Below are positions 31,623 to 55,356 of a stretch of DNA of 61,044 nt, piece after piece. Numbering within the stretch: position 1 is the stretch's first letter; each line of letters opens with the position of its first letter. The stretch comes from Candidatus Zambryskibacteria bacterium RIFOXYD1_FULL_40_13 (GTDB lineage: Bacteria > Patescibacteriota > Minisyncoccia > Phycocordibacterales > DATDWN01). The position numbers and the translations under genes are program-made. The DNA is taken from the NCBI GenBank assembly GCA_001824295.1, contig MHWY01000005.1, positions 304-61,347 of the forward strand, written 5' to 3'. The notes under the pieces were generated by a model, which saw nothing but the letters and a program-made list of their open reading frames with translations, was not told where the DNA came from and ran no database searches.

Positions 31623-31666
31623 ATATTTTGCCCTTGGGGGTCTAATGAGCTATAATGGAGGGATGA

Positions 31667-31983
31667 CCCGGTAGTGAAATTTTAGTTCGATTATGTTCTA
31701 TACATACGTATTAAAGAATAAAGATGATAAACTGTATATTGGATATACAAAAGATCTAAAACAAAGATTTGCAGAACATAATCAAGGGTTAAATCTTTCG
31801 ACTAAAGCCAGTCGCCCGTGGAAGATTATTTATTATGAGTGCTGTCTAGATATTAATGATGCAAAGCGAAGAGAGGGGTATTTTAAAACCAGTCAAGGCC
31901 GCAGGTTACTACGACGGAGACTGAAGGAGTATTTTTATAAAATAAGGTCGAAAGATTTAACAAACTAAAATTCTACTACCGGG
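31667..31983 (+). mobile_element. 317-bp element: GIY-YIG ORF between 19-bp terminal inverted repeats, flanked by an ATGA duplication
   Basis: Left TIR CCCGGTAGTGAAATTTTAG (31667-31685). Right TIR CTAAAATTCTACTACCGGG (31965-31983). ATGA at 31663-31666 and 31984-31987. The same terminus family recurs at 32.7, 45.4 and 54.2 kb. Confidence 0.6.
31693..31968 (+). CDS. GIY-YIG (URI-domain) nuclease family protein, 91 aa
   Basis: FYTYVL...LYIGYT...RFAEHN...REGYFK, the classic short GIY-YIG pattern. Confidence 0.85.
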   Translation: MFYTYVLKNKDDKLYIGYTKDLKQRFAEHNQGLNLSTKASRPWKIIYYECCLDINDAKRREGYFKTSQGRRLLRRRLKEYFYKIRSKDLTN

Positions 31984-32664
31984 ATGATTCATTTTGACAA
32001 AGTATCAAAGATATACCTCGATAATTCAATTGCTCTAGAGGATATCTCGTTCTCTATTGAACCAAAGGAGTTCGTCTCTATTGTGGGGCATTCTGGCGCG
32101 GGAAAGACGACACTACTAAAGATGTTTCTTGGAGAAGAGCTCCCTACAAAAGGCAAGATTTATTACGAGTCCATAGACATAAGCACACTGAAAAAAAGTC
32201 AAATCAACGACTTCCGTCGCAAAATTGGTGTAGTTTTCCAAGACTTTAGACTTATACCCGACAAAAACGTATACGAAAATATAGCCTTCGCCATGGAGGC
32301 TTCTGGCAGAACTGACGAGGAAATAGAGGCGGATGTACCGCACGTCTTGGGGCTGGTAGACCTTGAGAGGAAGATGTGGAATTTCCCACATGAACTTTCT
32401 GGTGGAGAGAAACAGAGAGTGTCTATCGCCAGAGCTATAGTCAACCAACCGGATGTGGTTATTGCCGATGAACCGACTGGAAACCTAGACCCCCTAAACA
32501 CCTACGACATTGTTCAGATTCTAAAGAAGATAAATGACCTTGGTACTACAGTTGTCTTAACCACTCACAACAAGGGCGTGATTGATTCCCTGAAAAAAAG
32601 AGTTTTGACTATGGAGAACGGAAAAATAATTCGCGATGATAAAGAGGGAAAATACGTCATTTAG
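31984..32664 (+). CDS. ftsE: Cell-division ABC ATPase FtsE
   Basis: MIHFDKVSKIY..., Walker A GHSGAGKTT, signature LSGGEKQR, Walker B VVIADEP. Confidence 0.9.
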   Translation: MIHFDKVSKIYLDNSIALEDISFSIEPKEFVSIVGHSGAGKTTLLKMFLGEELPTKGKIYYESIDISTLKKSQINDFRRKIGVVFQDFRLIPDKNVYENIAFAMEASGRTDEEIEADVPHVLGLVDLERKMWNFPHELSGGEKQRVSIARAIVNQPDVVIADEPTGNLDPLNTYDIVQILKKINDLGTTVVLTTHNKGVIDSLKKRVLTMENGKIIRDDKEGKYVI

Positions 32665-34187: not shown

Positions 34188-34248
34188 TGCGAGATCACCC
34201 GTCTCGACTTGGCAAGCTCGCGAGCCGAGGTGGATCTAATGGTAGGAT
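34188..34248 (+). pseudogene. 5' portion (acceptor strand to D-arm) of a split tRNA-Gln-like gene, carrying a 37-nt insert
   Basis: TGCGAGA TC a[CCCGTCTCGACTTGGCAAGCTCGCGAGCCGAGGTGGA]TCTAATGGTAGGAT. TGCGAGA is the exact complement of TCTCGCA at 34703-34709. Confidence 0.5.
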
Positions 34249-34250
34249 AT

Positions 34251-34502
34251 ATGAGTTGTCACGTTTATGTATTAAAAAGCAATAGACATGATAAATCTTA
34301 TGTTGGGTCAACAAATGATCTTGAAAGAAGATTATCAGAACACAATAACGGCAAATCAGCTTATACTTCAAAATATAAACCATGGAGTATAATTTATACT
34401 GAAGAGTTTAGTGTACTAAAGGAAGCTCGGGAAAGAGAGAGGTATTTAAAGGGTCGTAGCGGGAGAAGGTTTTTGAAAAAGATTTTTGATAATAAAAAAT
34501 GA
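34251..34502 (+). CDS. GIY-YIG (URI-domain) nuclease family protein, 83 aa
   Basis: HVYVL...SYVGST...RLSEHN...RERYLK. It is a paralog of the ORF at 31693-31968. The start choice (34251) is uncertain. Confidence 0.8.
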   Translation: MSCHVYVLKSNRHDKSYVGSTNDLERRLSEHNNGKSAYTSKYKPWSIIYTEEFSVLKEARERERYLKGRSGRRFLKKIFDNKK

Positions 34503-34516
34503 CTTCTGCACAAAGC

Positions 34517-34587
34517 TGGGAGATCGTCTAATGGTAGGACGCATCCCTCTGAAGGATGCTATCTTGGTTCGAGTCCAAGTCTCCCAG
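34517..34587 (+). tRNA. tRNA-Gln(CUG)
   Basis: TGGGAGA TC GTCT AATGGTA GGAC G CATCC CTCTGAA GGATG CTAT CTTGG TTCGAGT CCAAG TCTCCCA G. U1-A72 is typical of tRNA-Gln. Confidence 0.85.
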
Positions 34588-34609
34588 CTTTGTGCAGAAG
34601 TCTGAATAA

Positions 34610-34710
34610 TCGTCTAATGGCCCGTCTCGACTTGGCAAGCTCGCGAGCCGAGGCGGATAGGACACATCCCTCTGGAGGATGTTATCTTGGTTCGAGTCCA
34701 AGTCTCGCAG
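34610..34710 (+). pseudogene. tRNA-Gln-like body (positions 8-73) lacking its 5' acceptor strand, with a 37-nt insert in the D-loop
   Basis: TC GTCT AATGG[CCCGTCTCGACTTGGCAAGCTCGCGAGCCGAGGCGGA]TA GGAC A CATCC CTCTGGA GGATG TTAT CTTGG TTCGAGT CCAAG TCTCGCA G. Confidence 0.5.
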
Positions 34711-34740
34711 CTAGGAGTTTTTTGTTAAAAAAACGACGCC

Positions 34741-34869
34741 GCAAGAGACTTGGACTCGAACCAGGGAAGGGGTCGGGAAACGGGAGTTTCCCGTGTAGGA
34801 AGGCAGTGAGCGAAGCGAACGTTGGAAAACCGTCGGTTTCCAAGGAGTGAGAGATCCAAGTCTCCCAGC
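34741..34869 (+). ncRNA. Conserved structured element, copy X2 (unknown class; paralog at 20849-21039)
   Basis: Core blocks at 34764-34783 and 34787-34846 match X1. Hairpins CGGGAAAC-GGGA-GTTTCCCG and TTGGAAAACC-GTC-GGTTTCCAA. Closing helix GAGACTTGGA/TCCAAGTCTC. Confidence 0.4.
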
Positions 34870-42216: not shown

Positions 42217-42615
42217 ATGAAAGCAGTACTTGCTATAAAATTCAAAGAGGATTACTCAGACAAGGAAAAGATTAAGAAAATCTCGGGTGTGTTGGAAAGT
42301 GTCGGTATCTCGAGTGAGATAATGGTTAAGGATTATGAAAAGTGGGGAGCTGTCAGGTTTACTCCACAGGAATTGATGAAAAAGACGTTTGAGATTATTG
42401 ATGCGTCGGATATGTTGATTACTGAGTTTTCTGAAAAAGGTGTGGGTCTGGGTATTGAAGCGGGTTACGCATTTGCAAAAGGTAAACCCATATATGTCAT
42501 TGCAAAAGAGGGGTCTGATATTTCTACGACTCTTGCTGGAATAGCAAGAGTAGTTATTTTCTACCAGAATATTGAGGAAGTGGGGGAGAAGATAGAAGCT
42601 GTATTGGAAAAATAA
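42217..42615 (+). CDS. Nucleoside 2-deoxyribosyltransferase-like protein
   Basis: 132 aa with the GLGIEAGYAFAKGKPIYVI pattern. Confidence 0.5.
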   Translation: MKAVLAIKFKEDYSDKEKIKKISGVLESVGISSEIMVKDYEKWGAVRFTPQELMKKTFEIIDASDMLITEFSEKGVGLGIEAGYAFAKGKPIYVIAKEGSDISTTLAGIARVVIFYQNIEEVGEKIEAVLEK

Positions 42616-42653
42616 GTATCAAAAAAAACAAAAATTTTTGCTTTTTTTGATAC
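42616..42653. terminator. Long A/T-rich palindrome, bidirectional terminator candidate
   Basis: GTATCAAAAAAAACAAAAA/TTTTTGCTTTTTTTGATAC, 18/19 paired, between convergent genes. Confidence 0.55.
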
Positions 42654-42675
42654 TCATTTTAAATTGGTGGTTTTT

Positions 42676-45285: not shown

Positions 45286-45368
45286 ACTTTTTGTCGCAAT
45301 AATTTGTGTGAATAATGTTGTATTGTCTTTCTTTTTGCCCCGAAATGAGGTAGAGTGGTCTCTTGATG

Positions 45369-45433
45369 CCCAGTAGTAGAAGTTGGCATTGTGCCAAAGG
45401 CACACAAAAACAGATGCCAACTTCACTACTGGG
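45369..45433. repeat. Palindromic MITE-like element M1 (GTAGTGAA family, inverted orientation)
   Basis: CCCAGTAGTAGAAGTTGGCAT ... ATGCCAACTTCACTACTGGG. Confidence 0.7.
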
Positions 45434-45460
45434 CTATCCGGTAGTGAAAATGACATTGAT

Positions 45461-45530
45461 CCAGTAGTGAATTTTGACATCGTGCTACGCACCGTCCGCA
45501 AGTGCGGACAATGTCAAAGTCTACTACTGG
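45461..45530. repeat. Palindromic MITE-like element M3
   Basis: CCAGTAGTGAATTTTGACAT ... ATGTCAAAGTCTACTACTGG, with an internal hairpin GTCCGC-aagt-GCGGAC. Confidence 0.7.
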
Positions 45531-45610
45531 ATTGAATACGTAATAAATAACAAACATGATAAGGTCGAAATTAGAAATAGATAATATTAAAATAACATTC
45601 TGCTCATAGA

Positions 45611-45679
45611 CCCAGTAGTGAATTTTGGCATAGGGCTTTGCCCAGCACATTATGTGCAATGCCAAAATCTACTACTGGG
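45611..45679. repeat. Palindromic MITE-like element M4
   Basis: CCCAGTAGTGAATTTTGGCAT ... ATGCCAAAATCTACTACTGGG. Confidence 0.7.
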
Positions 45680-45705
45680 AGAGCTATGTCATTTTTCACT
45701 ACTGG

Positions 45706-47157
45706 ATGGCAAAAGATGAAACAATAATAAATTTTGATAATGTCTTCTTTAGTTTTGGAATAAAGAAACCGATTTTGAATGAAGCAAGCTTTACTGTAAG
45801 GCGAGGGGTAAAGGTGACTATCATGGGACAAAACGGTGCTGGCAAGAGCACTCTTTTTGGCCTTATCTCGGGAGACCACAAACCCGAAGAAGGCAAGATA
45901 CATATTGGACAGGGATTGAGTATCGCTATGTCTCGTCAGGTAATACCGCGCTCTCAGATGGATATGACAATACGAGAGTTTTTTCAGAATTGTTTCCAAA
46001 AAAAGGTTTATGATATTGATCCCAGGATAGATACTGTTTTGGAGGCGGTAAACTTTGATGCACCAAAGGATAGAATAATAAAAACTTTTTCTGGTGGACA
46101 GCAGGCAAGACTCCTTCTGGCTTCTGCACTTATACAAGACCCGGACATATTGCTTTTGGACGAGCCAACAAACAACTTGGATAAAGAGGGTATAGCGCAC
46201 TTAACAAAATTTCTTGTTGATTACAAGAAAACGTGTCTCGTCATTTCCCATGATTCCGATTTTCTAAACGCTTTTACACACGGGGTTTTGTATTTGGATA
46301 TTTTCACAAAGAAGATAGAGCAGTATGTGGGGGACTATTTTGACGTGGTGGCAGAAATCTCTGCTAGGATAGAAAAGGAGAATAGAAAAAATGCTCAACT
46401 AGCCAAGGAGATTCAGCTTAATAAAGACAAAGCAAACTTTTTTGCAAACAAGGGTGGTCAGATGCGACTTGTTGCTCGTAGGATGCGAGACAAGGCAGAA
46501 GAGCTAGAGGAGGAGAAGGTTGACGTGAGACGGGAGGATAAAACCATAAGGCCCTTCGTCATACCCGTACAGCCAGATATAAATGGAGACATCATAAAGA
46601 TTACTTCCTTCTCCATGTTCAAAAACCACAAGGCAGTAGCTAGGAAGGCGAATGTGGTGTTGAGGAAGAAAGAGCACTTGCTTTTGACTGGTCCAAACGG
46701 TATCGGCAAAAGTACTCTTCTTGAGGCGTTGGCTAGTGGTACTGCCAAGGGGACCGAGATTGCTCCTGGGATTAAGGTTGGATACTACAGACAAGATTTT
46801 TCTACACTAAACTTTGAGGACACGGTTCATGATTCTCTCATGAGTGTTATGGAAGAGCAGGTTGAGGAGAGTTTGCGTTCGACAGCATCTGGGTTTTTGC
46901 TCAATGGGGATTTGATGAATACTAAGATTGGCAGTCTATCGGAGGGGCAGAAGGGGCTTGTGGCCTTCGCTAGACTGGTGTTGCAGAAGCCGGGGCTTCT
47001 TATACTAGATGAACCAACCAACCATATTAACTTCAGACACATTCCTTTTATTGCAAAGGCCTTGGATGGCTATGAGGGAGCAATGATACTTGTTTCCCAT
47101 GTGCCAGAATTTGTAAAACAAATTCGCATTGACGAAATCTTTCCGCTTGATAAGTAG
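45706..47157 (+). CDS. ABC-F family ATPase (two ABC domains, no TM domain)
   Basis: Two Walker A motifs (GQNGAGKST, GPNGIGKST) and two signatures (FSGGQQAR, LSEGQKG). Start taken at MAKDETIINF, immediately after the M2 right arm. Confidence 0.85.
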   Translation: MAKDETIINFDNVFFSFGIKKPILNEASFTVRRGVKVTIMGQNGAGKSTLFGLISGDHKPEEGKIHIGQGLSIAMSRQVIPRSQMDMTIREFFQNCFQKKVYDIDPRIDTVLEAVNFDAPKDRIIKTFSGGQQARLLLASALIQDPDILLLDEPTNNLDKEGIAHLTKFLVDYKKTCLVISHDSDFLNAFTHGVLYLDIFTKKIEQYVGDYFDVVAEISARIEKENRKNAQLAKEIQLNKDKANFFANKGGQMRLVARRMRDKAEELEEEKVDVRREDKTIRPFVIPVQPDINGDIIKITSFSMFKNHKAVARKANVVLRKKEHLLLTGPNGIGKSTLLEALASGTAKGTEIAPGIKVGYYRQDFSTLNFEDTVHDSLMSVMEEQVEESLRSTASGFLLNGDLMNTKIGSLSEGQKGLVAFARLVLQKPGLLILDEPTNHINFRHIPFIAKALDGYEGAMILVSHVPEFVKQIRIDEIFPLDK

Positions 47158-51764: not shown

Positions 51765-54101
51765 ATGATTAACACAAAAAATTTTGAAAAGTATTGTCGG
51801 GCAGCAAACTATCTTTCTGCCGCACAGATATTTTTAAAAGACAATTTTTTACTAGAGCGCCCACTATCTTTTGATGATATAAAGCCGAGACTTTTGGGTC
51901 ACTGGGGAACCTGCCCTGGGGTAAATCTCCTTTATGCCCACCTAAATGCTCTGACAAAGGAACATAATCTAGATACACTTTTCATTCTTGGTCCTGGGCA
52001 CGGTTTTGCTGGTCTTCAAGCAAACTTGTTTATTGAAGGAACTCTTTCAAAGTATTATCCAGACCTACCACAGAATAAAGGGGGTCTTGAAAAGATGGTC
52101 AAATCTTTTAGTTGGCCGTATGGTTTCCCAAGTCACACCAACCCAGGGACACCTGGTGCAATCTTGGAGGGTGGGGAGCTCGGATATTCGCTGGCTACCG
52201 CGTACGGCGCGGTTTTAGATAATCCAGATTTAATCGCGGTTGCAATGATTGGGGATGGTGAAGCAGAAACAGGGCCAACAGCCACAGCCTGGCACTTAAA
52301 TAAATTTATAAATCCGAAAACAAACGGAACAGTTTTACCTGTGCTTCATAGGAATGGTTACAAAATATCTGGGCCAACTATCTTTGGAAGAATGTCTGTT
52401 GAGGAACTTACATCACTTTTCACTGGCTATGGTTATCATCCGTATTTTGTAGATGGTGGAGAGGGGGTTCATGAAAGACTTTCTCTAACCCTTGAGGACT
52501 GCTACAAGGAAATAAAAGAGATAAAGGAGGCGTCCCCTGTGTCGCCAAGGTTTCCGATGATTGTTCTCACGACCCTGAAAGGTGAGGGTGGAATAAAAGA
52601 ACTTCATGGAAAAAAGATAGAAGGAAATTTTGCAGCCCACCAGGTTGTGGCAACCTTGGCAAAGTCAGACGAGGGCGAGCTTCGAATGGTTGAAGAGTGG
52701 CTTCGCTCGTATAACTTTAATGAATTATTTAATGCAGAAACCGGTTTTATAGACGAGATAAAGGAACTTATTCCAGAAGAGTCAAAAAGAATTGGAAACA
52801 ATAAACATTGTTTCGGCGGAGATAGGGTTTACAAAGACCTATCTCTTCCTTCAGTTACAGAAAATGCTGGAGAAGTTTCCGAGAGGGGTGTGTCTATGGT
52901 AAGCAATATGATTCAGGCTGGGGAATATCTGAAGAGGGTTATAGAGGCCAACGAGGCCGACAAAAATTTCAGAGTATTTTCACCAGACGAGACATATTCC
53001 AACAAACTACAGGCTATTTTCAAAGCAACCACTCGTTCCTTTGTTTGGCCACACATGGACCACGACGAAGACCTAGCAAGAGATGGAAGAGTAATAGAGA
53101 TGCTGTCGGAGCATTCACTTCAGGGGCTTATGCAGGGATATGTTTTGACAGGGAGACACGCAGTCTTTCCTTCGTACGAAGCTTTTATTCAAATAGTGGG
53201 TAGTATGACCGACCAATATGCTAAGTTTTTGCGTATTGCTCGCGAATTGTCGTGGAGAGGAGATATTTCTTCTCTGAATTATATTCTCACAAGTCCTGGT
53301 TGGGCACAGGAGCACAACGGCTTTTCTCACCAGAATCCTGGGTTTATAGATACAGTTCTCCAGCGACATGGCCCATATGTTAGTGTGTATTTTCCACCAG
53401 ACAGGAACTCAACCCTAGTTTGTTTAAAGAAAATGTTGGAAACAAAAAAGGAGATAAATGTTCTTGTCTCTGGAAAGGCGGATTCGCCAGAGTGGCTCAC
53501 TGTAGCAGAAGCGGAAAAAGCTCTATCGCAAGGTGTGATGACCTGGGATTTTGCTAGTGATGAAAATCCAGACATTGTTTTTGCTTCTGTTGGAGACTAT
53601 CTAACCAAAGAAAGTCTAGCTGCGATTACAACTATCAAGGAAGATGCGCCGGAAGTTAGGATAAGGTTCGTCAATATTCTTGAATTAACCGCAATGGGTA
53701 TCGGTTCAACAGAGAAACAAATGTCAGAGGGAAGCTTTGAAGGTTATTTTACAAAGGACAAGCCTGTTATACTAAATTTCCACGGTTATCCTGAGACCAT
53801 GAAGCAAGTTTTGTTTGACCACAAGGATGCAAGTGATCGATTCTCGATTCATGGATATATAGAGAATGGTTCAACTACGACTCCATTTGATATGCAGGTT
53901 AGAAACAAGACCAGTAGATTGCATATCGCTAGAGAAGCGATAGAGACACTCGGTAAAAATGGAGTTATCTCGGGGGATAAGGCAAATATTATCAGTCAAA
54001 AATATAGTAAACTTTTGGATGAACATCTAGCATTTATAAAAGAGACAGGTGATGATCCAGAGTATATAGCAAAATGGCAATGGTCCGGTAGTAGAAAATA
54101 A
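51765..54101 (+). CDS. xfp: Xylulose-5-P/fructose-6-P phosphoketolase
   Basis: 778 aa with LLGHWGTCPG, EGGELGY and GDGEAETGP (ThDP-binding) motifs. Confidence 0.93.
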   Translation: MINTKNFEKYCRAANYLSAAQIFLKDNFLLERPLSFDDIKPRLLGHWGTCPGVNLLYAHLNALTKEHNLDTLFILGPGHGFAGLQANLFIEGTLSKYYPDLPQNKGGLEKMVKSFSWPYGFPSHTNPGTPGAILEGGELGYSLATAYGAVLDNPDLIAVAMIGDGEAETGPTATAWHLNKFINPKTNGTVLPVLHRNGYKISGPTIFGRMSVEELTSLFTGYGYHPYFVDGGEGVHERLSLTLEDCYKEIKEIKEASPVSPRFPMIVLTTLKGEGGIKELHGKKIEGNFAAHQVVATLAKSDEGELRMVEEWLRSYNFNELFNAETGFIDEIKELIPEESKRIGNNKHCFGGDRVYKDLSLPSVTENAGEVSERGVSMVSNMIQAGEYLKRVIEANEADKNFRVFSPDETYSNKLQAIFKATTRSFVWPHMDHDEDLARDGRVIEMLSEHSLQGLMQGYVLTGRHAVFPSYEAFIQIVGSMTDQYAKFLRIARELSWRGDISSLNYILTSPGWAQEHNGFSHQNPGFIDTVLQRHGPYVSVYFPPDRNSTLVCLKKMLETKKEINVLVSGKADSPEWLTVAEAEKALSQGVMTWDFASDENPDIVFASVGDYLTKESLAAITTIKEDAPEVRIRFVNILELTAMGIGSTEKQMSEGSFEGYFTKDKPVILNFHGYPETMKQVLFDHKDASDRFSIHGYIENGSTTTPFDMQVRNKTSRLHIAREAIETLGKNGVISGDKANIISQKYSKLLDEHLAFIKETGDDPEYIAKWQWSGSRK

Positions 54102-54173
54102 CATTGAATAGATTCACTAAGTAAATAAATTGAAAATTGTCGAAATTATAAATAATAATTTAAAAAATTTCAC

Positions 54174-54207
54174 CGCTCGGTAGAGCGATGTTATTTTTCA
54201 CTACGGG
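54174..54207. repeat. Mini hairpin / solitary arm of the GTAGTGAA family abutting the ackA ATG
   Basis: ctCGGTAGAGcgATGTTATTTTTCACTACGGG, immediately followed by ATG at 54208. Confidence 0.45.
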
Positions 54208-55356
54208 ATGGAAAAAAATATCTTAGCAATTAACATTGGAAGCTCCTCAAAGAAGTACCACTTTTTTTCTGATGAAAGTCTTCTTTCTAGTGCACATTTT
54301 GAGCGTGACAATGAAAGACATATTGTAACTTATAGAGGGGGCGAGGAGCAGGAGATTAATTCGGAGACATATGAGAATAGTCTGGAATCATTTTATGAAA
54401 CCCTAAAGACAGGTGGACAGGTCAGTGACGAGAAGCCAGTTTCGGCTATTGGCCTCCGACTAGTTGCTCCGGGAGAATATTTTGCAAAAGACAATCTTGT
54501 AAATGAGGAATTTATTAAGAATCTTGAAACTATTGCAAAAAGTGATCCAACCCATATCGTCCCAGTACAGACAGAGCTTGGTTTTGTCAGTAAGCTTTTT
54601 CCAGGTATTAATATAGTTGCAGTTTCAGATAGTCGTTTTCACTCAACCATGTCACAGGTTGCAAGACAGTATGCTATCCCAGAGAAACTAGCTAAAGAGA
54701 AAGATATATATCGCTTTGGTTTCCATGGGATTTCTGTGGCAAGTATTGTTCATGACCTCCTTAGCCGACCATCTAGTATAGAGAAGAAAGTCGTTGTTTG
54801 CCACTTGGGTAGTGGGGCAAGCATAACAGCAGTATTGGATGGAAAAAGTGTGGATACTTCAATGGGTTACTCTCCCCTTGAAGGATTAATAATGAGTTCC
54901 CGGGTTGGAAATATTGATGCAGGTGCGGTATTGCGACTACTAGATGAAACAAGTCCAGACGAACTGCATAAATTGTTTTATTTCCAGAGTGGATTATTGG
55001 CTTTGAGTGGCCTGTCCGACGATATGAGAGTACTTCTCAGTGCCGAGAAGGAGGGGCACTCTGGAGCACATCTAGCTATTGAGTCTTTCGTTTATGCTGT
55101 TAGAAAATATATTGGTGCATATGCAACGGTGCTTCACGGTCTCGATGCTATTGTTTTTTCAGGAACAATGGGTGAGAGGGCCTTTCTTGTGCGAGAGAGG
55201 ATATGTAGTAACTTGGAATATTTGAATATTCACATTGATTTGGAAAAGAACAAAGTCGCTGTGGGTGGAACAAATATTGCAAGCTCTGGAATACCAATAT
55301 ATATAGTTAATGTGGATGAGGCAGGGGAGATTATGCGAAGGACTGCATTATTATAG
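54208..55356 (+). CDS. ackA: Acetate kinase
   Basis: ILAINIGSSSKKY N-terminus, FGFHGIS and HLGSGASI motifs. Confidence 0.9.
   Translation: MEKNILAINIGSSSKKYHFFSDESLLSSAHFERDNERHIVTYRGGEEQEINSETYENSLESFYETLKTGGQVSDEKPVSAIGLRLVAPGEYFAKDNLVNEEFIKNLETIAKSDPTHIVPVQTELGFVSKLFPGINIVAVSDSRFHSTMSQVARQYAIPEKLAKEKDIYRFGFHGISVASIVHDLLSRPSSIEKKVVVCHLGSGASITAVLDGKSVDTSMGYSPLEGLIMSSRVGNIDAGAVLRLLDETSPDELHKLFYFQSGLLALSGLSDDMRVLLSAEKEGHSGAHLAIESFVYAVRKYIGAYATVLHGLDAIVFSGTMGERAFLVRERICSNLEYLNIHIDLEKNKVAVGGTNIASSGIPIYIVNVDEAGEIMRRTALL

Follow-up and report, generated by a model that had tools for sequence, protein, structure and literature searches.

The closest described system to the one reported here is that of the Ssn nucleases and their NTS/SRM hairpin repeats. 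Ssn is a single-domain GIY-YIG nuclease of 94 amino acids. It binds hairpin repeats on either side of the gene that encodes it and cleaves adjacent single-stranded DNA, and its authors remark that the nuclease-repeat layout resembles an insertion sequence (Chenal et al. 2025; PMC11893778). The present study concerns a stretch of 61,044 nucleotides (nt) of Candidatus Zambryskibacteria bacterium RIFOXYD1_FULL_40_13 (contig MHWY01000005.1, hereafter the window), a Paceibacteria/Parcubacteria genome, in which a nest of hairpin-ended repeats adjoins the start codon of a gene for an ABC-F ATPase. A first reading of this DNA from its letters alone (the original prediction) had noted the nest and proposed a family of mobile elements with a preference for, or survival only at, leaderless start sites. 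We find that the hairpin-ended family consists of mobile elements, widespread in Patescibacteria (the candidate phyla radiation, CPR), that generate a target duplication of about 4 bp. With a probability of roughly 0.7, we read the block at the ABC-F gene as the debris of a hairpin-ended selfish family that is mobilised by its own GIY-YIG nuclease, with start-codon-targeted integration followed by selection for an intact host ATG.

The two systems are alike in part. Both comprise a single-domain GIY-YIG protein of about 90 to 94 amino acids (91 here); in both, hairpin-forming sequence brackets the gene, though in different arrangements, and is also dispersed genome-wide in copies without an open reading frame (ORF); and in both the repeat is directional, with an asymmetric feature. 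Two separate small hairpins flank the Ssn gene, whereas the CPR gene lies inside one long hairpin whose arms pair with each other. The repeats are also unrelated, the SRM motif HGTCWY...RNCYNB having no match on either strand of the window, and the host clade here is the CPR. The 4-bp duplications, empty sites and start-codon or -35 placement of the CPR elements did not come up in a term search of the main text of PMC11893778. The likeness was judged from the published description and the SRM motif; the criteria for Ssn proteins themselves are cd10448 or a blastp E value < 1e-10 to SsnA (CAX49033.1).

Other known families share parts of this arrangement. REP/REPIN-RAYT systems (repetitive extragenic palindromes and their associated transposases) and IS200/IS605 insertion sequences also combine one small nuclease gene flanked by imperfect palindromes with many ORF-less hairpin copies, and the likely principle is the same: what is recognised is folded hairpin DNA that contains a conserved irregularity. 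These systems use HUH/Y1 transposases and make no target duplication, whereas the CPR element has a GIY-YIG gene as the only gene between its arms and duplicates 4 bp. The Correia elements of Neisseria resemble the short CPR copies in their size (60-130 bp), terminal inverted repeats and short target duplications, and in forming gene-adjacent, co-transcribed stem-loops that occur nested or in tandem. To our knowledge, the duplication made by Correia elements is TA, and no cognate enzyme is known for them; the CPR family differs in its duplication of about 4 bp (TTGA, ATGA, TATG), in its candidate autonomous partner and in its placement at -35 boxes and start codons. GIY-YIG homing endonucleases (I-TevI, Seg proteins) are likewise selfish genes that insert precisely and leave the host gene intact. 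They carry an extra DNA-binding domain, address one target gene, spread by homologous repair and have neither inverted repeats nor target duplications. In contrast to these enzymes and to group I introns, the CPR elements target many unrelated gene starts, show no intron RNA by Rfam and encode a catalytic domain only. In the full-text literature, we found no description of this hairpin/GIY-YIG family, nor of start-codon and promoter-box insertion specificity for any bacterial element.

A decayed nuclease-bearing element abuts the ABC-F start codon

Between positions 45369 and 45706 of the window there are eight arms of the CC(N)GTAGT(GA/AG)A type, where chance would give none. A 20-nt arm consensus (CCAGTAGTGAANTTTGRCAT, at most 3 mismatches) gave six matches, all in the ABC-F block, and 0.00 in shuffled sequences (n = 100). 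The block is arranged as M1, then M2 enclosing M3 and M4, with ATG at both outer edges; this layout, with its coordinates and the TAGAGT box 9 nt upstream, had been described in the original prediction and holds on re-reading and by the arm search. The features are as follows (no strand is given for M1, M3, M4 and the spacer).

45351 to 45356, plus strand: TAGAGT, a -10-like box 9 nt before the left ATG (consensus resemblance only; uncalled by the promoter scan)
45366 to 45368, plus strand: left copy of the ATG, bounding the block on its outer left side and matching the ATG at 45706-45708
45369 to 45433: M1, short ORF-less hairpin element (fold -27.2 kcal/mol, z = -10.6), without a matching duplication of its own
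45434 to 45436: CTA spacer between M1 and M2, read from the sequence
45437 to 45456, plus strand: M2 left arm, T-CCGGTAGTGAAAATGACAT, paired with 45686-45706 in the block fold
45460 to 45531: M3, short ORF-less hairpin element inside M2 (z = -7.0)
45536 to 45596, plus strand (as ABC-F): M2 interior, decayed 5' part of a GIY-YIG gene, aligning with 31704-31764 of the element at ftsE
45611 to 45679: M4, short ORF-less hairpin element inside M2 (z = -7.9)
45686 to 45706, plus strand: M2 right arm, ATGTCATTTTTCACTACTGG-A, whose final A doubles as the A of the ABC-F ATG
45706 to 47157, plus strand: ABC-F ATPase gene, its start codon abutted by the block (Pfam ABC_tran, two copies)

The ABC-F start at 45706 is the true one: 80 orthologues (the best with 82% protein identity) align from residue 1, and gene callers use this position in 5 assemblies. 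Folded as a single strand, the entire block adopts the structure M1 + M2[M3, M4] at -158 kcal/mol (z = -15), and M1, M3 and M4 each form a long stem capped by small GC hairpins (z between -7 and -10.6). These three have the features of miniature inverted-repeat transposable elements (MITEs), with a length of 65-72 bp, arms of about 20 bp and no ORF. In M1 the asymmetry is flipped, the left arm reading GTAGTAGA and the right arm TTCACTAC.

The interior of M2 was found to align with the 5' part of the GIY-YIG gene in the element at ftsE described below. The alignment score of 27 compares with 11.2 +/- 1.8 for shuffled sequences, none of 500 shuffles reached it, and blastn gave E = 4e-7. Thus, the element that touches the ABC-F ATG is a decayed nuclease-bearing one and, as judged from its sequence, M2 is a decayed full-length element on the ABC-F start codon and co-oriented with the gene. 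The nested insertion that had been proposed is real. M3 and M4 are short copies inserted later into M2, flanked by the predicted duplications of TTGA (45456-45459 and 45532-45535) and AGA (45608-45610 and 45680-45682), respectively, and M1 is another short copy at the left edge of M2. The M1-CTA-M2 layout, a short copy followed by a spacer of 3-4 nt (CTAA, TTAA) and a long element, recurs at three further loci (L223:880-1300, L245:370-790 and L278 near position 975).

A terminator scan of the block returned none, and promoter-like matches within it were weak. Rfam, at gathering thresholds, reported only tRNAs in the window, with no family matching the hairpins and no intron RNA, and the exact left flank of the nest had 0 matches in JGI metagenomes. 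Inside M4, positions 45625-45653 form a promoter-like site facing ABC-F, with TTGGCA, which belongs to the left arm, separated by 17 nt from CATTAT; this is a consensus match only.

An intact element with a GIY-YIG gene lies on the ftsE start codon

The original prediction had also described copies ending on the start codons of ftsE (with an ATGA duplication) and ackA, and both are as claimed. The copy at ftsE is arranged as follows.

31663 to 31666, plus strand: ATGA, left copy of the 4-bp target duplication, following TATAAT (31651-31656) and 6 nt
31667 to 31983, plus strand: intact full-length element, 21-bp arms around a GIY-YIG gene; same architecture in 59/80 homologous loci
31693 to 31968, plus strand: GIY-YIG nuclease gene, 91 amino acids, stop codon within the right arm (Pfam PF01541, E = 7e-17)
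31984 to 32664, plus strand: ftsE, whose first four bases, ATGA, are the right duplication copy (from the sequence and empty sites in relatives)

The four elements of the nest had been described as ORF-less. This applies to M1, M3 and M4, and also to the ackA copy; the ftsE copy has a GIY-YIG gene between its arms, and M2 is the remnant of such an element. In the 91-residue protein, PF01541 spans residues 1-68 and no further domain is present. The catalytic-type residues are invariant in our alignment A1, and the closest solved or annotated relatives are UPF0213 (1ywl, 1zg2), SLX1 and YazA-type proteins, with E values from 2e-7 to 1e-3.

In relatives, the ftsE target is a textbook TATAAT-N6-ATG. 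Among 72 related ftsE loci (72-90% protein identity), 71 read TATAAT-N6-ATGATT with nothing inserted; ATGA is therefore a true 4-bp duplication. One relative (L303:1-40, FtsE 89% identical), of which 33 nt of upstream sequence are covered, also has an element directly before this ATGATT, and the inner arms of that element are different (ATGTCATTTTCTACTACCGGG). Thus, this position has been used independently.

The third gene-abutting copy in the window is of intermediate size.

54084 to 54208, no strand given: ORF-less element of mid-size length (125 bp) on the start codon of ackA, identified by its arms, fold and flanks

It is flanked by a duplication of (A)TGG at 54080-54083 and 54208-54211. 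The frame of the upstream gene xfp (phosphoketolase) now ends in the left arm of this element, with its stop codon at 54099-54101, so the insertion altered the last residues of xfp. Before the insertion, the xfp frame would have run across the start of ackA and stopped a few codons further on. The start of ackA is an in-operon codon overlapping the end of xfp and hence not leaderless.

The full-length element has one architecture at most of the loci compared

Homologues of the nuclease fall into 255 clusters, and its relatives were confirmed by tblastn at 446 loci in species-representative genomes, nearly all from Patescibacteria. The architecture was determined for the best 80 of these 446 loci. 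Of the 80, 59 have both strict arms; in most of the remainder the arms deviate by one mismatch and keep the same fixed spacing. The element measures 301-320 bp, with a single outlier of 342 bp, and its terminal inverted repeat of 21 bp consists of (C/T)CCNGTAGT(GA/AG)A followed by about 10 variable complementary bases. Between the arms lies a single-domain GIY-YIG gene of about 90 codons. In most loci the CCN of the arm is 24-27 nt before the nuclease ATG, and the stop codon falls within the right arm or up to about 46 nt before it.

The arms form a stem of 21 bp in which positions 0-20 are paired. The outermost pair covaries as C..G or T..A, and positions 12 and 16-19 show compensatory changes, with 3-4 pair types and at least 92% pairing. 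At positions 9-10, 62 of 65 elements have G.T and A.C, and with respect to the ORF this mispair faces either way in roughly equal numbers. These compensatory changes, together with the conserved mispair, argue that structure and not duplex sequence is what is recognised.

No other gene or larger insertion sequence was found between matching arms in 1.8 Mb of sequence, and matching arms 421-4000 bp apart proved to be only the arms of separate small copies. A nuclease profile search of IMG/VR viral contigs returned none.

Short ORF-less copies accompany the full-length element

More than 120 loci, a lower bound, match the short ORF-less copies, and they come from many CPR classes. All figures for short copies in this report (based on 94, 96, 90 or 79 copies) hold among the matches listed. 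Short and full-length elements share their outer 11-12 nt, and 15 assemblies are common to the listed short-copy and nuclease loci, where well under 1 would be expected. The short copies, including M3 and M4, carry a GC-rich mini-hairpin beside the TCTAC-type arm, often with a second one; a three-way junction fold was predicted for 45 of 96, compared with 8 of 96 with shuffled interiors. The interiors of M1, M3, M4, the ackA copy and the copy at locus L019 have no significant similarity to GIY-YIG elements.

At four loci in different species (L118, L152, L178 and L199), the short copies share the flank TA-TAGCA-C ... G-TAGCA. These are probably one old insertion kept at an orthologous site in related genomes, so some short copies are long-lived.

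Duplications and empty sites demonstrate movement

Direct repeats of at least 4 bp flank 62 of 94 short copies, where about 9 would be expected, in agreement with the proposed mobile, MITE-like nature of the family. The comparison with empty sites in relatives, which had been suggested as a check, gave the same answer at both genes: 80/80 ABC-F orthologous loci have no element at the start, as do the 71/72 ftsE loci mentioned above. Additionally, two elements that are 96.5% identical lie at different genes (L283 and L288), and the composites of L223 and L245, about 90% identical, occupy two loci of one genome. The nest itself is identical in 5 other assemblies of the species, with no polymorphism and no intermediate states seen.

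Long elements mostly occupy start codons and short copies often occupy -35 boxes

Across the CPR, about 80% of the long elements sit on a start codon, and the genes concerned are unrelated to one another. In 50 of 64, an ATG (48) or GTG (2) opening an ORF of at least 60 codons lies 0-2 nt from the right end, and in all start-abutting cases the host gene is co-oriented with the nuclease gene. The start codon is repeated on the left in 44 of 51 long elements. The host ORFs are diverse and are real genes, including those for MetAP, DnaG, AlaRS, FtsK and an epimerase among others, and in 8 of the 9 with Pfam matches the domain begins at residues 3-17. In the window, all three gene-abutting copies belong to the long or mid-size class. 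A census of both kinds of site gave the following counts.

Long elements with an ORF: start codon 45/56, -35 box 0/56
Mid-size ORF-less elements: start codon 5/8, -35 box 0/8
Short copies (among the matches listed): start codon 7/79, -35 box 24/79

The start-codon preference that the original prediction had proposed for the whole family is thus borne out by the long class (50/64; 45/56 in the census) and the mid-size class (5/8). It does not extend to the short copies, 14 of 96 of which lie at ORF starts compared with 13% in the control (7/79 in the census). Overall, only about 9% of short copies lie at start codons and about 27% in TTGAC -35 boxes. The flank of 23 of 90 short copies is TTGAC, the sequence of a -35 box, for which the expectation is 0.8. 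Since TANNNT follows 15-19 nt downstream in 20 of 26 such TTGAC sites, with TTGA duplicated, these targets are real -35 boxes. TANNNT directly at the ends of short copies is not enriched (18 compared with 15.3 expected).

A leaderless nature of the start sites, also proposed previously, is not a requirement. Of the 44 left codon copies, 23 are preceded by TANNNT at 5-8 nt, most often at 6 nt, compared with 9.8% of all ATGs, and ftsE has TATAAT-N6-ATG; the ackA start, however, lies within an operon. A model in which the element is targeted to the open promoter bubble was considered. It loses ground because some targets, such as ackA, lie within an operon and because roughly half of all targets have no correctly spaced -10 box.

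The register of insertion follows the outermost base of the element. Among 46 elements, 44 obey the rule that a C end is placed at +3/+4 and a T end at +5/+6, and all of these give 4-bp duplications. Elements with C..G ends are inserted after (T)ATG or ATGA, and those with T..A ends after ATGRA, where the terminal A rebuilds the ATG. The register class tracks the phylogeny of the protein, nearest neighbours sharing a class in 30 of 46 cases where 12.8 would be expected, and yet the register can differ by 1 nt between elements with 98% identical proteins.

A proposed mechanism and its alternatives

In the mechanism that we propose, the GIY-YIG protein would be the mobilising nuclease. By analogy with Ssn, what it recognises may be the DNA hairpin or cruciform into which the arms fold, and the G.T/A.C mispair would then identify that structure; both the Ssn nucleases, which are related and consist of a single domain, and SLX1, a structure-specific endonuclease, suggest such recognition of structure. 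Cuts by the nuclease, at WTGA- or ATG-like targets as well as at the ends of the element, would be staggered by 4 nt. The position at a start codon would lend the transcription of the host gene to the nuclease gene, and the host gene would survive thanks to the restoration of its ATG immediately behind the right arm. In transcripts of the host gene, the element or elements would consequently form a highly structured leader. More tentatively, and with odds that we put slightly below even, the family may constitute a new class of prokaryotic transposon, in which a single-domain GIY-YIG protein of about 90 residues, encoded in the loop of its own 21-bp hairpin, would be the sole element-encoded protein and integration would be directed to the first bases of genes (long elements) or to -35 hexamers (short copies), with a 4-bp duplication that spares the start codon or promoter.

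A number of observations weigh against this mechanism. GIY-YIG nucleases are not known to perform strand transfer, and joining would therefore need host repair or ligation. The case for mobilisation by the nuclease is one from sequence comparison. A single machinery for both classes leaves the split between start codons (long elements) and -35 boxes (short copies) unexplained. Matching duplications were not found for M1 and M2 singly, only the M1-M2 block as a whole being flanked by ATG, nor for the composites at L223, L245 and L278. The interior of the ackA copy has no detectable similarity to GIY-YIG genes, by alignment with shuffles or by blastn. The fixation of the nest in the species means that no ongoing activity is seen at the ABC-F locus. 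Furthermore, a translational relay from the left ATG into the nuclease gene was considered and rejected: the upstream frames are inconsistent, the ATGA type stopping after 3 codons and the others being out of frame, so a simple relay is unsupported.

The placement of long elements might alternatively reflect uniform integration, with a 4-bp stagger and a loose T/A-rich or TTGA preference, after which only those nuclease copies lying just inside transcribed starts are expressed, multiply and stay intact. Such a history, which we hold to be unlikely although deserving of a hearing, would account for the lack of enrichment at start codons among short copies, which need no expression, and for a register that varies from +3 to +6 and differs by 1 nt between elements with 98% identical proteins; the end-base rule also resembles a filter for rebuilding the ATG. 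However, silent, intact young copies should then be common elsewhere, and only 14 of 64 intact copies lie off a start codon and 0/56 at a -35 box. The independent insertion of the L303 element at the identical ftsE nucleotide likewise speaks for targeting, and the -35 precision of the short copies means that the machinery can be site-specific. For these three reasons, we favour targeting combined with a filter over survivorship alone.

It would be more doubtful still that the nuclease gene is a passenger, a free-standing gene of the homing-endonuclease type that invaded the loop of a pre-existing hairpin moved by another enzyme. The protein is indeed a catalytic domain only, GIY-YIG homing endonucleases are classic invaders, and the window contains a paralogue (45% identity) that is located among tRNA pieces outside these arms. 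In contrast, most of the best 80 of 446 loci share one fixed geometry (arm 24-27 nt from the ATG, stop in or close before the right arm), the register of insertion goes with the nuclease clade, the arms enclose no other candidate gene, short and long forms strongly co-occur in the same genomes, and Ssn nucleases act on their own flanking repeats (PMC11893778). We regard it as highly improbable that the hairpins are host repeats, that is REP-like leaders, attenuators or RNA-stabilising stems kept for the expression of ABC-F, ftsE and ackA. By position they are co-transcribed, as RNA they are very stable (-158 kcal/mol), their stems show compensatory changes and the nest is fixed in the species. 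Against this, the hairpins are missing from 80/80 ABC-F and 71/72 ftsE orthologous sites, they are flanked by target duplications, near-identical copies lie at unrelated genes, the host genes have no relation to one another, and there is neither an Rfam match nor a terminator-like site.

Should mobilisation of the hairpins by their own GIY-YIG nuclease prove true, it would provide concrete selfish-element biology for the single-domain (Ssn-like) nucleases, with footprints of movement in the form of duplications, empty sites and near-identical copies at unrelated genes. The elements mark true start codons and leaderless promoters in the genomes of CPR bacteria that cannot be cultured. Through them, housekeeping genes (ftsE, ackA, ABC-F, dnaG, alaS, map) have very stable hairpins in their leaders, and how leaderless translation survives this is a testable question. 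The pairs of nuclease and hairpin are also candidates for new specificities in DNA tools of the kind proposed for Ssn.

Further features of the window

The GIY-YIG paralogue in the window is encoded at 34251-34502, comprises 83 amino acids and shares 45% identity with the protein of the ftsE element. Its neighbours in the region 34199-34860 are a tRNA-like 5' fragment on one side (34199-34250, with a second copy at 34622-34658) and tRNA-Gln on the other (34517-34588); duplicated tRNA 3' halves lie nearby. This looks like a GIY-YIG insertion in or beside tRNA genes. The copies at two further loci, L203 and L237, also adjoin tRNA sequence. On either side of tRNA-Gln lies one half of a perfect 23-nt inverted repeat (34501-34523 and 34580-34602), which lengthens the acceptor stem to a long hairpin. 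Finally, an AT-rich palindrome of perfect spacing, with 26-nt arms that are 92% complementary and no loop, occupies 42609-42660 at the end of a gene block that ends at 42615.

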